Part shown: in pieces, positions 34,125 to 39,160 of the stretch | Numbering within the stretch: position 1 is the first letter of the stretch | Layout: each line of letters begins with the position of its first letter | Source of the DNA: Picochlorum sp. SENEW3 | Lineage: Eukaryota | Assembly (NCBI GenBank): GCA_034226945.1 | Contig: CP120459.1 | Coordinates: forward strand, 744,001-808,000 | Direction: 5' to 3' | DNA length: 64,000 nt | Notes under the pieces: generated by a model | What the model was told of the DNA's origin: nothing | What the model saw: only the letters and a program-made list of their open reading frames with translations | The model's database searches: none | Program-made: the position numbers and the translations under genes

Positions 34125-35087
34125 TCATAAGAAAGCAAACAGTTGCAATCCCAGGGCACCAATAGCCATGGTTGGCAAGAGCATTGGTGATCCAGACGAT
34201 GGTGCAGACTCTTTGATGCCGTCTAATGTCTGAAGTTTGAACGGAATACAATTGACGTTAGCAAACAATCCTGTGGAAATATCTTCAGGATATTCATACA
34301 TATGCCATGCATTGTTGTTGCTGTCTCTAATGATGAAACTGAAGCAATCATCACCCACCAGGTATGGGACATGAGTCTCATTCGTTGTCAGTGTGACATT
34401 CTCCCATGCTGACCAACCGTCGGGAAAAACGACTGAATCTAGGTTGTTTTTCCAGTCTTCATCAGTCGCCATCTCTGATTCTGACGTCTGGAGGGCCCAC
34501 TTACCTCCGTAGTTGTCTGTGACAGAGGCAAACCATGGAGGAATATAATTGTAATCTTTGCACTGTTTGGTCATGACCACTACGACAGTGCCAGGAGCGG
34601 CATCCACGTCTGATACACCACCAGAAGTTCCAGAACTTCCTGAAGAAGGGTATGTACCAGAACACAGTAACTCTGCAATGATTGTCCACTGATCAGTTTC
34701 AGAAATCTCCGGGATCACGACATTGTAGACACAATTTTCTGTGCAGTTGGCAGGAGCCATAGGAGATCTTGAGTCACAAGTTCCATTATTCCCAGGAGCA
34801 GAGTAATCCGTCGCTGACAATGCATATGGAGCAGGCAAAGGGTCCGGCAAATCAGAAGCTGGGGTCTTGCTGTAGTACTGTGTCGAGTTGGCTTGGTTGG
34901 TGATTTCCGTCCAGGTCGCCCCCCTGTCACCGTAACTGCAGTTCACCGCAATTGGACCACAAACAGCATCTTTGCAATTCAGCAGCTCAATAATATCAAT
35001 CAACTCTGTTGATTCGGCGCGAACACCACGTCCGATATGGTACACCAGTACCACAAGCACAACTGTAGCAAGACGTCGGAGGTACAT
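34125..35087 (-). CDS. Secreted, probably GPI-anchored cell-surface protein of unknown function
   Basis: N-terminal signal peptide, acidic Cys-containing body, Ser-rich omega-like site (APSSGS) and a hydrophobic C-terminal tail. Confidence 0.75.
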   Translation of the reverse strand: MYLRRLATVVLVVLVYHIGRGVRAESTELIDIIELLNCKDAVCGPIAVNCSYGDRGATWTEITNQANSTQYYSKTPASDLPDPLPAPYALSATDYSAPGNNGTCDSRSPMAPANCTENCVYNVVIPEISETDQWTIIAELLCSGTYPSSGSSGTSGGVSDVDAAPGTVVVVMTKQCKDYNYIPPWFASVTDNYGGKWALQTSESEMATDEDWKNNLDSVVFPDGWSAWENVTLTTNETHVPYLVGDDCFSFIIRDSNNNAWHMYEYPEDISTGLFANVNCIPFKLQTLDGIKESAPSSGSPMLLPTMAIGALGLQLFAFL

Positions 35088-35525
35088 CGCTTTTTTCCAG
35101 GCAACAAAGTACTAGTACTTTTTTTAATAATAATAACAAGTTGATCTGTTTGGCGAATGCCAAATTCTATAGCCTTGGACCATGGGTCTTTTGTGGCAGG
35201 CCTCGCGTCGCTCGCCAGTCTCGGTCGGTCGTCCGTAGGGCTCCCTCGGTCGCCGTGTCGGTTGGATGGAACACGTAGCGTAATCGGCTTCTAACCGTAT
35301 GGGTGCGTAGCGTAATTGAGAAACCCTAATATCTCATTTAGAACTGCATGATGTGCCATGCATTGATTCTTTCAATAAGTGCAGAATGTACATACATGTA
35401 TACATACATGTGCATATATGATGCTATTACATCAACCTCTTTCGGAAGTATTGAGTTGCTGGTCTCGTAGGATAGGAGGATGTCGGTAGGAGAAGTCAAC
35501 TCTCTCACATCACAGATCGATGGTA

Positions 35526-35588: not shown

Positions 35589-35743
35589 GGATGATGCACG
35601 GCTGGATTGTCCGTACACCCGCCGCCAGAAAAATAAGGCCAAAAGCAAGGATACAACGGTCAGAATACAATTATTTTACTAAATTGAGCGAAAATAGAAC
35701 GCCTTTTTCTTATTTCTTTCAATATCCACACCAATCGGCTTGT

Positions 35744-36349
35744 ATGGAACCTCGCGTTGTGGACCCCCAAAGTGGTCAGCTTGTCCGCCTCAATTCTGGC
35801 AGGGGGGGACAGCAGATATATCAAATTTCCCTCTCTCAAAATTCACAAGCATCAACACCATCACGTGCAGCATCACTTCAGTGGGGAGCCGGAGCTGCGG
35901 AATGGTCCTCTTCCTGTGGTGATTGCTGTGACGATTGTGGGATCTGCTGCAAAGGGTTCTGGTGCCCGTGTTGTCTGCACGGTGATATCAAAGAGCATGT
36001 GGATGGTGTAAGGCCTGAAAGTGGAACGTATACTGTGCTCTGCTGCATTCAGAGCTGGTGCTGTCTGCCATGCTTCAACTGCACAACATGCTGCTCTGGC
36101 AAGCCTCTTCGGTCAAAACTGAGGAGAATGTATGGGCTTTCAAAATCAGGCGGATGCTGTGGAAGTGATTGCTGTACTCATTATTGTTGCCACGCATGCG
36201 GTCAGTGCCAGGAAGCAAGGGAGATTTGGTTCAGGGGTGAGGCATTGAAAACAACTTTGGCTTCTACAACCCCTGCGGCAACAACTCCACCTCCCGTTAT
36301 CATGATGGAACCGTCACAAAAAAGAAGAAAAACTATCTGTAGGATATGA
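35744..36349 (+). CDS. PLAC8-family Cys-rich protein (probably the N-terminal part of a fusion with the downstream DNase II)
   Basis: WSSSCGDCCDD..CC..FWCPC, LRRMYGL and DCCTHYCCHACGQCQEAREI motifs. Confidence 0.88.
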   Translation: MEPRVVDPQSGQLVRLNSGRGGQQIYQISLSQNSQASTPSRAASLQWGAGAAEWSSSCGDCCDDCGICCKGFWCPCCLHGDIKEHVDGVRPESGTYTVLCCIQSWCCLPCFNCTTCCSGKPLRSKLRRMYGLSKSGGCCGSDCCTHYCCHACGQCQEAREIWFRGEALKTTLASTTPAATTPPPVIMMEPSQKRRKTICRI

Positions 36350-37550
36350 AGTTGCATTTAAGAATGGGAGAGGAGAAGAAAAAGACGGAAACCATTACAC
36401 TGGTCTGGAAAGTCAAATCTTCATCAATGGTTCATCAGGTTGGCAATTCGAACAGGATATCAACGACTGGATCAAATCAAAACTTGCAAATAATACTTGG
36501 GATGGAGTTTTGGCATATAATGATCAGAGTGATAAAACGTGTAAGGGCCATGCAAAAGGAATTGTTGTTTGGAACAAGCAGTATGTTGGCTGGCTTATTC
36601 ACTCAGTTCCTCATTGGCCTTCGTTTTTCATCAGAAAGGCAGAAGACAACTCAATTTACTCCTCCAAGGGTACAAGTACAAAAATAGAGGGAACTGTGAA
36701 CGTATTGCCAAGCCTTCCAGACAGCTGCAAGAGAGAAGGCCAATCCTTCATGTGGAGATTACTTGACAGGAGAAAAAGCTATCGCAAAGGGAGCATTAAA
36801 AACGGACATGGTATTGTGGACGAAGATACACCGGTTTCTGATGTGCTGGAAGAAATTTACAAGGTTGTCAATGCCATTGGAGCATGTGTCGTGACAGAAT
36901 TTTTCAGTGAGAATGCAGAGAAGGAATTGAATTTGTACCATCGTGATGCTCAGTTGAATCCTTCCACTGAAATGACTCTGCTGTCGCTGTCCCCTGATAC
37001 AATCCCTTCAGAAAGTCATCTGGTGCATGTGTTTAAGACGGGACACTGGGTTCCAGAAATCGATTCCTCATTGATCGATAAACACGTTGAGAAGAAGAGC
37101 AACAATCATGATCACATCACAAATGCTCCCGACTTTTACAGGCATGGGCTGCTTGAAGGATTTGGCCCAATGGTGACGAAAACACACGTTGCCAAAACAG
37201 ATGAGAAAAATGTCAAAAGGCGTGATGGTCAAAAAATACGCAACGGAAACAATCATCCATACTATTGTGACGCTCTTGTCCAGAAGGCTGACACATCCTG
37301 TTTTCAGGTGGTCCGTGGCCAAGAAACAGGACACGAGTTGCATGGGGAAAACGACCATTCGAAAATCGCCTACTCATCTCAAACCAATGACGGACTTAAG
37401 TGGGTATTTGTCGGAGATTTGAACAGAAATACCTCCCAGGGATTGCGAGCTGGTGGTGGCATCCTGGTCAAGGATCAAATGTTATGGACCCTGTTTCAGA
37501 AGAGACTTAAAAACATACAGCCCAAACCTGGTCTTGAGTATGACTTCTAA
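36343..37550 (+). CDS. Deoxyribonuclease II (PLD superfamily) domain lacking its own ATG
   Basis: AYNDQ, GHAKG, WLIHSVPHWP, DHSK and WVFVGDLNRNTSQ..RAGG. The frame is open from 36306 but has no ATG upstream of the first catalytic motif. Confidence 0.88.
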
Positions 37551-37909
37551 TCAGCAGAAAATACAATCAAAAACTTACAGACAATCAGAGGCCCAGTTGC
37601 ATTTCCCACTTTAGACGCACACACGTACTTGTTGTCCTACCAAGGCAGAATTTTTCAAAATTTCAAAATGTAAAATTCCGTATTACAATACTTTTAGTTT
37701 AGATGTCCCGACCCTAATTCCCCCATCAACCCCGTGACGTGACGGATCATTCGAATGAATTCATTCACGTCGACTCAGGTATCAACATCTCCATCACCGA
37801 CATACGTGTTGAGGACAAAATTGAGCACATCCAGTATCTTTTAAATTTACTTTAATCGATCGTTGCATCGAGTTCTTCCCATTCCCATCAGAAGACAGCA
37901 ACGGCGATC

Positions 37910-39160
37910 ATGCCCAGCCTCGGTGGACTCAGCGACTTGGTCGCTGACGCCGGCGCATATGCAGAAGACAACAAAACAACAGTTGCAATTGTCGGTGGAG
38001 TAACAGTATTTGCTGGAATCAGTCTCTATATGAAGCGATCGTCGAAAAGGACCAAACCGGGAACCTTTGAGATTGGAAGTGGTTCTGTAGATCGCTCCAA
38101 AGTGCAGGATGAGGTAAACGATTATTATGACGAATTCAATACTCTGGAACGTGGAAAAGGAGCGGTTATTGACAGAAAGGAAAAGGTTGCCAACCTTGTT
38201 GACAAATTTTATTCCCTGGTGACTGATTTGTACGAGTGGGGGTGGGGAACATCCTTCCACTTCTCTCCTCTTCTTCCAGGAAAGGATTGGCCTGCATGCG
38301 AGTCTGCGCATGAGGGTAGAATTGCTGCATTGATTGGTCTGGAACCAGGGAAGACTGCGTTGGATGTTGGATGTGGGGTGGGGGGACCTATGCGTACGAT
38401 TGCTGCAACCAGTCAAGGAAAGGTGACTGGAATTACCATCAACCAATACCAGGTGGATAGAGCTGCCTATCATAATTCAAGACTTGGACTTTCTCACCTC
38501 TGTAGCCCAGTTCGAGGTGATTTCTTGAATATGCCTTTTGAGGACGAGTCGTTTGACGGAGCCTATGCTATTGAGGCTACATGCCATGCCCCAACTGTAT
38601 GTGCATCTATATTGAATAATCATCATCGTTTCTTCTTCCTGATGCATATCAATAATGAACAATATTGAATACTAATGCAGTTGGAACAAGTGTACAGTGA
38701 AGTGTACAGATGCCTGAAACCAGGAAGTGTGTTTGTTGCATATGAATGGGTCACGACACCAAACTACGACGAGAAGAACGAAGCACACGTGGCCATCGCA
38801 GATGAAATTATTATCGGTAACGGCCTTCCAAACCTTCGATCATGGAAGGTGGCCGAGGACGCAGGAAAGAATGTCGGGTTCAAATTACTCAAGAGTAGAG
38901 ACCTTGCTGTCAAGGCAGATGGATCCCTCACACCCTGGTGGCACAGGCTCTCCACCAGTCTAAAAATCTTCAAGTTGAAAGCGAAATTCAACCATTCCCT
39001 GGTCACAATCGCCGAGTACCTCGGCGTCGCTCCCAAGGGAATGATCCAGGTGCATCAAATGCTCGTGGACACGGGCATTGCCCTGATTGAGGGTGGTGAG
39101 CAAGGCCTCTTCACCCCAATGCACATGGTGGTCTTCCAAAAGGAATCGGAATCGAATTAA
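37910..39160 (+). CDS. Sterol 24-C-methyltransferase
   Basis: YEWGWGTSFHF, LDVGCGVGGP, IEATCHAP and YEW motifs; intron 38597-38680. Confidence 0.95.

Follow-up and report, generated by a model that had tools for sequence, protein, structure and literature searches.

Does a green alga make a DNase II that is joined to a PLAC8 domain and, if so, by what route are the two joined? The question is raised by positions 35744 to 37550 of a 64,000-nucleotide stretch of Picochlorum sp. SENEW3 (GenBank assembly GCA_034226945.1, contig CP120459.1, positions 744,001 to 808,000 of the forward strand; the whole stretch is called the window, and all positions are its own), where an open reading frame (ORF) for a PLAC8 domain overlaps a second frame that resembles DNase II. 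Most of what is known about DNase II concerns an animal acid nuclease that is secreted or resides in lysosomes. An earlier note on this DNA had proposed two routes to an in-frame fusion, alternative splicing of a 106-nt intron or a +1 slip in a run of six adenines (A6), either of which would give a switchable isoform. Comparison with relatives indicates instead that PLAC8 and DNase II are one gene, that the fusion itself is real and is constitutive in relatives, and that the window copy is interrupted by the net loss of two bases from a homopolymer in a length-variable linker.

The layout of the locus is as follows.

35744..36349, + strand: PLAC8-frame ORF of 201 codons, from ATG 35744 to TGA 36347-36349; its last 8 residues, RRKTICRI, are an out-of-frame tail.
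35903..36223, + strand: PLAC8 domain, residues 54-160, Pfam PF04749.
36224..36341, + strand: interdomain linker, with a conserved part, FRGEALKTTLAS..PPPVIMME, and then a K/E-rich tract of variable length.
36237..36342, + strand: the 106-nt GT-AG intron proposed earlier (GT 36237, AG 36341-36342), which is translated linker in relatives.
36306..37550, + strand: DNase II frame, +1 frame, 414 codons, ending at TAA 37548-37550; the domain proper runs from about 36342 (GYEVAFK).
36318..36332, + strand: purine tract A6-G-AA-G-A5, with the frame break in the A6 run at 36318-36323.
36339..36351, + strand: 13-nt GT..AG gap of the GenBank model WPT16357.1, an annotation device that bridges the frameshift and not a plausible intron.
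36549..36557, + strand: first HxK motif, H82-A-K84 of the DNase frame (GHAKG, residues 81-85), aligned to GHTKG of 5i3e.
37356..37364, + strand: second HxK motif, H351-S-K353 (DHSK, residues 350-353), aligned to DHAK of 5i3e.

The GT, AG and A6 positions and both junction peptides had been given in the earlier note and follow from the sequence. Its description of a complete PLAC8 ORF overlapping a DNase II frame with both HxK motifs and no start of its own is likewise confirmed. The PLAC8 domain covers all 101 positions of the PF04749 profile (E 7.8e-17) and scores 62.5 bits where the cut-off is 34.4; the DNase II frame matches PF03265 at E 1.4e-21 with 77.5 bits, the cut-off there being 23. 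Two motifs are described for the PLAC8 family, CCXXXXCPC and QXXRELK (PMC12467093); the first, read from the translation, occurs as CCKGFWCPC at residues 68-76 (35945-35971), and QEAREIW is a QXXRELK-like counterpart of the second. The first Met of the DNase frame is residue 149, which lies 3' of the first HxK motif and leaves the frame without a usable start.

Evidence for a single gene comes from protein relatives. With the DNase frame as query, about 5.8 billion proteins yielded 12 matches, and the domain-architecture check suggested earlier found PF04749 and PF03265 in one protein in five clusters (at 90% identity) of 497-650 residues. The PLAC8 ORF, used as a query against longer proteins, returned the same five clusters and nothing else; their named members are Picochlorum. 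That both domains share one product, as the earlier note had supposed, is borne out by every full-length relative read: all ten (P0001, P0165, P0162, P0164, P0002, P0166, P0004, P0005, P0006 and P0171) run from PLAC8 to DNase II in one ORF, passing through ..FRGEALKTTLAS..PPPV(I/V)MME.., a K/E-rich tract and then ..SVGYEVAFKNG... Two further models, P0003 (Picochlorum renovo) and P0167, are shorter; their starts fall within the linker, and both read through the K/E tract without a shift. The junction is in a single frame in 12 of 12 relatives' proteins read.

The closest named comparison is Picochlorum sp. BPE23, whose genome is described as a phased diploid high-fidelity (HiFi) assembly at 199x (PMC9615354). 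Its two intact fusions, KAI8105595.1 (598 aa) and KAI8106210.1 (604 aa), carry the GenBank label ‘hypothetical protein’; both copies (P0162 and P0164) are intact and differ by six linker residues. They share with the window the MEPRVVDPQ start of the PLAC8-frame ORF, the PLAC8 domain, the linker and DNase II. In a tblastn comparison P0162 matches the window at 96% over aa 1-198 and at 92% over aa 192-598, in frames 2 and 3; because these matches abut across both frames, overlapping only at 36315-36337, the pairing of PLAC8 and DNase II is not a matter of chance.

The same comparison locates the break. Agreement between the window and its relatives extends to ..MMEPSQK in the PLAC8 frame and resumes at KEEKLSVGYEV in the DNase frame. 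The BPE23 proteins are single intact ORFs with linkers reading QKKEEKL or QKKEEKKEEKL, whereas the window has A6 and a broken frame. Intact relatives that read QKKEEKL have a run of eight adenines (A8); P0162 and P0167 read EPSQKKEEKLSVGYEV, and the junction peptide of the BPE23 fusion is ..SQKKEEKLSVGYEV... At the DNA level, an 855-letter contig from sequencing run X1, which has 6 other letters differing from the window, carries AA inserted behind 36317, which yields A8 and QKKEEKL in one frame; it comes from a near-identical strain in which A8 keeps the frame. From the relatives' in-frame tract and the A8 of this contig, the break therefore reads as a net two-base shortening of the homopolymer. 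The second route of the earlier note stands to this extent, that one A fewer is equivalent in frame to the relatives' two A's more; a regulated slip does not follow from it. Related DNA was not found among metagenome contigs of the Joint Genome Institute (JGI), either by a protein-pattern scan or with the degenerate pattern VGWLIHSVPxWP, so DNA-level comparison of splice sites and A-runs is limited to run X1. An exact look-up of the window's PLAC8 ORF in the protein collection, with four start variants, found none of them present.

These observations suggest a single-exon gene, conserved in Picochlorum, for a PLAC8-linker-DNase II fusion of about 600 residues. In the window copy, A6 in place of the A8 of its nearest intact relatives moves the frame by one base, and the PLAC8 frame stops 8 codons on. 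The product would be a 201-residue PLAC8-only protein, and any nuclease would depend on a second allele, should there be one, or on rare slippage.

Is the shortening a real mutation? We consider it reasonably probable that the frameshift is a genuine allele of the sequenced strain, very recent or heterozygous, and not a regulated switch. The earlier note had itself held that an assembly indel would speak against a switchable isoform and for a constitutive fusion, and an indel difference from the relatives is what was found. The published SENEW3 assembly carries the same frameshift, because its model WPT16357.1 (P0163) reproduces both window frames: residues 1-70 equal PLAC8-frame residues 129-198, the last 398 equal DNase-frame residues 17-414, and a single split codon connects the two parts. 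The truncation of this model and its 13-nt gap at 36339-36351 are annotation artefacts. It starts at an internal Met (MYGLSKSGG, PLAC8 residue 129, window 36128) and is consequently without the CCXXXXCPC motif. The published account of the genome describes annotation by MAKER2 with Picochlorum protein evidence, four rounds of Pilon polishing with Illumina reads plus manual correction, and a strain that is at least diploid (PMC11092101). Moreover, in the 2301 bases compared with the window, a contig of run X10 (172,881 letters, word depth 58) has the same sequence throughout, A6 included, with no other letters or gaps. The X10 contig set is genome-sized (13.3 million letters), as from accurate reads, and was assembled by a different program.

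The alternative that survives best is an assembly artefact, in which the strain truly has A8 in frame, a nanopore under-call of the homopolymer was kept, and the gene is an ordinary intact fusion. Several observations count for it and against a genuine allele. A shortened homopolymer is the typical error of Oxford Nanopore Technologies (ONT) R9 reads, and the difference from intact relatives, all 12 of which are in frame, is exactly a two-base homopolymer shortening. The assembly that shares the frameshift rests on ONT R9 reads processed with Canu, Racon and Medaka (PMC11092101). The DNase frame has not decayed, with 0 differences at the 159 columns that are invariant in seven intact fusions and a short end branch (0.018) in a quick tree; this lack of decay is compatible with an artefact and equally with a mutation of very recent date or with heterozygosity. 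X10 may be the window's own source or polishing data and is not fully independent, and three more runs from that sample, X11-X13, contain 0.97 of the sampled words instead of 1.00. Set against the Illumina polishing, the manual correction and the A6 of the X10 contig at its word depth, an artefact seems to us possible and on the whole unlikely.

The favoured reading of a genuine, non-regulated allele also has to be weighed against recoding, in which a real frameshift is overcome by a +1 slip on AAA-A or by polymerase slippage in A6, so that a useful level of fusion is made beside the PLAC8-only isoform. tRNA-Lys would re-pair perfectly one base on (CAA AAA AGA read as AAA GAA), and a pristine DNase frame is expected if it is still in use. 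However, the shift is not conserved, with 12 of 12 relatives in frame, and AGA, which occupies the A site in frame 0, is not rare but the Arg codon used most (26% of 647). The downstream 123 nt fold no better than shuffled sequence (z +0.78; of 200 shuffles, 155 fold equally well or better), and no Rfam element matches at E up to 1. A run of six adenines is also short for efficient polymerase slippage. For these reasons the site was rejected as a programmed +1 frameshift, and recoding of any kind is quite improbable.

Under the splicing route, some transcripts would lose 36237-36342, so that ..EIWFRG continues directly into YEVAFK.., and unspliced RNA would give PLAC8 alone. This route can call on a GT at 36237 (G|GTGAGG), an AG at 36341-36342 (TCTGTAG|G), a frame that excision restores and the presence of introns in this genome, such as an 84-nt one in the neighbouring gene (38597-38680). 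However, the first 26 residues of this segment are conserved without gaps among the seven intact fusions at a mean pairwise identity of 0.78, which exceeds the 0.65 of the DNase domain (the K/E tract is at 0.54, with gaps), and the segment is conserved coding linker. Around the junction, 91 GT-AG pairs of 40-400 nt restore the frame, and one plausible-looking pair is therefore expected by chance. The proposed intron also lacks the GTATGT and TACTAAT signals of the neighbour's intron, the only one used for comparison, verified by eye, as a window-wide scan for intron signals was too unspecific to give a consensus. Splice joints were not seen in contigs of any of the four runs compared, none of which is a proven RNA run of SENEW3; the RNA status of X1 (‘probably DNA’) and X2 is a guess, and jointless contigs do not prove splicing absent. 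One X2 contig continues unspliced 52 letters beyond the 5' site at 36237. Two 151-letter contigs of X8, an oligo-dT RNA library from a sediment metagenome, cover 35632-35782 and 36574-36724 and fall short of the junction; parts without coverage and contig ends, such as an adaptor at 37649 in X2, were not counted as evidence. A spliceosomal intron at 36237-36342 was rejected on its protein-level conservation and the lack of joints in these four runs, and of all the explanations considered it is the least credible.

What would the fused nuclease do? Its C-terminal domain would be a DNase II-type endonuclease of the phospholipase D superfamily with two HxK motifs. Across 101 DNase II sequences K84, H99, S100, P102 and K353 are invariant, H82, D350, H351 and S352 are conserved in at least 90%, and all of these residues are present in the window. 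A model of the nuclease frame from AlphaFold2 (AF2), based on the alignment of these 101 sequences, has a mean predicted local distance difference test score (pLDDT) of 85.6 and a predicted template modelling score (pTM) of 0.88. Foldseek matches it in the PDB to 5i3e_A (E 3.6e-11, probability 1.00), with 5i3e and 5unb entries between E 3.6e-11 and 9e-10 and the next folds, Tdp1 and PLD2, only at E >0.01. From its residues and fold the domain is predicted to be catalytically competent. In the solved DNase II it is the first His that attacks the phosphodiester, the second serving to activate water (PMC5449587). The algal nuclease would similarly form a covalent phospho-histidine intermediate, work independently of metal and leave 3'-phosphate ends.

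The nearest solved structure is that of Burkholderia thailandensis DNase II (5I3E, 5UNB; Varela-Ramirez et al. 2017), which has the same fold (template modelling score 0.63 by target length), aligns at both HxK motifs and is described as likewise without a secretion signal (PMC5449587). It differs in sequence (16% identity) and size, the algal domain having 414 residues against about 350 and an additional N-terminal PLAC8. Animal lysosomal DNase II alpha belongs to the same Pfam family and has both HxK motifs, but signal peptide, disulfides and N-glycans are described as required for its activity (PMC5449587), whereas the algal protein has no signal peptide. Of the Cys residues in the nuclease domain, only one is shared by all five fusions compared. 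Canonical animal enzymes form a separate clade in the quick tree (support 100).

The fusion is rare within this family. A HMMER scan of 1.84 billion representatives gave 339 matches at E up to 0.001 and only two at 1e-30. When 148 DNase II representatives were scanned with Pfam, DNase_II was found in all 148, PLAC8 in 0 of 148 and a GRF zinc ribbon in 1 of 148. The last, the 458-aa protein P0026, carries two C-terminal GRF zinc-ribbon stretches; by its domains this, too, is a rare fusion, here of a DNA-binding module to a DNase II of the non-secreted class.

Where the enzyme resides depends on its N-terminal part. The fusion has no signal peptide: its N-terminus, MEPRVVDPQSGQ.., is hydrophilic on the Kyte-Doolittle scale, in line with the earlier note, which had seen no signal peptide on the DNase II part. 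The nuclease would hang on a flexible linker of about 40 residues behind a Cys-rich PLAC8 module (25 Cys in the first 165 residues), a type that associates with membranes in plants; the linker of P0162 is predicted to be disordered (pLDDT <50, residues 175-189). The lack of a signal peptide together with the PLAC8 module would place the enzyme probably at the cytosolic face of a membrane and not inside the lysosome. Membrane association of the fusion, perhaps via acylated cysteines, is plausible from its sequence, and the protein may be a membrane-tethered nuclease, a suggestion that gains strength by analogy with giant-virus homologues (see below).

Two results weigh against this placement. 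The PLAC8 part has no clear transmembrane helix, its best 19-residue Kyte-Doolittle mean being 1.31, and AF2 models it poorly, pLDDT staying <50 from residue 31 to residue 97 of P0162. Hydrophobicity in P0162 is highest in the 19-residue windows at residues 93-117 and 365-390. Residues 1-30 of P0162 (window 35744-35833) are modelled as two short strands and a helix at pLDDT 71-76, ahead of the low-pLDDT PLAC8 core.

Among known PLAC8 proteins, the plant PCR and FW2.2/CNR proteins (PF04749) share the Cys-rich domain with CCXXXXCPC and a QXXRELK-like motif, but they are small and stand-alone, and the plant members are described with two transmembrane helices (PMC12467093), of which none is clear in the window sequence. 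Five stand-alone PLAC8 proteins, P0173-P0177 (220-290 residues), are 58-65% identical to the window's PLAC8 ORF and have in common with it the N-terminal stretch DPQTGQLVRL..SRAASLQWGA; they differ in carrying Q/P-rich low-complexity tails in place of the nuclease.

A second line of comparison comes from giant viruses, to whose DNase II-like proteins the earlier note had likened this compact nuclease. A profile of the DNase part only found relatives at 56 IMG/VR loci (L001-L056), many of them in giant-virus metagenome-assembled genomes; scanning viral contigs with the whole fusion as the query gave no matches. Among the 34 giant-virus loci that were translated, 27 encode proteins starting with MG and having a Cys in residues 3-15 (e.g. 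MGSCFSCC), and 22 have two or more Cys; examples are the ORFs at 1896-2735 of L005 and 1890-2726 of L013. This MG+Cys start looks like a membrane anchor of the myristoylation/palmitoylation type. None of the 79 other ORFs with 150 residues or more at the same loci has it, and 55 of the 148 DNase II representatives do; canonical DNase II enzymes carry signal peptides. In a viral structure library the sole match of the nuclease model is the fowlpox FPV032 DNase II (E 1.5e-7). FPV032 and the compact giant-virus ORFs resemble the algal fusion in lacking a signal peptide and in having an N-terminal feature like a membrane anchor; the giant-virus proteins differ in length (about 240-330 residues), in their MG+Cys start and in having no PLAC8.

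A tree of 106 rows was built with a quick IQ-TREE run from 34 of the 56 viral loci (hand-picked as long and non-duplicate), 45 of the 148 representatives and 16 canonical enzymes, with the first 185 residues of the fusions removed. The fusions form a clade (support 99) that is sister to three long proteins, P0014-P0016 (support 96), and lies among the representatives, outside the main viral clade. Judged from sequence, the algal domain belongs to the signal-peptide-less DNase II class that is common to giant viruses, but it is not nested in the sampled viral clades, and a giant-virus origin is one possibility.

A bolder proposal can be made, which we hold to be rather less likely than not. DNase II enzymes without a signal peptide may make up a class active on the cytosolic side of membranes, in which an anchor was gained at least twice, through N-terminal myristoyl/palmitoyl-type MG+Cys motifs in giant viruses and through fusion to PLAC8 in Picochlorum. 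For the alga this would mean a membrane-tethered nuclease, possibly guarding a membrane compartment against incoming DNA, such as that of giant viruses, or dismantling delivered DNA. The DNase II of this green alga cannot take the lysosomal route and is joined instead to a Cys-rich module of a membrane-associated kind, in an architecture seen in only five clusters among some 5.8 billion proteins. The fusion and the acylation-like viral N-termini would point to a membrane-bound, non-lysosomal use of DNase II that is unstudied. If the proposal is true, the idea of a membrane-tethered nuclease could be tested on SENEW3, whose frameshifted allele would amount to a natural knock-out or to a variant that makes PLAC8 only.

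The locus also flags an annotation problem, as its GenBank model is truncated and contains a 13-nt pseudo-intron, and it can serve to test for residual homopolymer errors in a published assembly. The fusion is present in databases as ‘hypothetical protein’ and is undescribed in the literature searched, where co-mentions of PLAC8 and DNase II are, by their listings, only unrelated mammalian ones, Picochlorum is not paired with DNase II or ‘deoxyribonuclease II’, and DNase II together with giant virus was not found in a myristoyl context. The statement in the earlier note that such a fusion had not been described holds for that literature, with the addition that the intact KAI8105595.1 and KAI8106210.1 were already in GenBank.

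The surrounding window is compact eukaryotic DNA, with a GC content of 0.43-0.52, long ORFs and few introns. The upstream neighbour, at 34125-35111 on the - strand, is a 328-codon ORF that is hydrophobic at both ends and has many N-x-S/T sites; from these features it looks like a secreted or glycosylphosphatidylinositol (GPI)-type surface protein. Downstream lies a gene at 37856-39160 on the + strand (..YAIEATCHAP..), which reads like a sterol/S-adenosylmethionine (SAM) methyltransferase; its 84-nt intron at 38597-38680 is in frame, contains an internal stop and has the signals GTATGT, TACTAAT and CAG.

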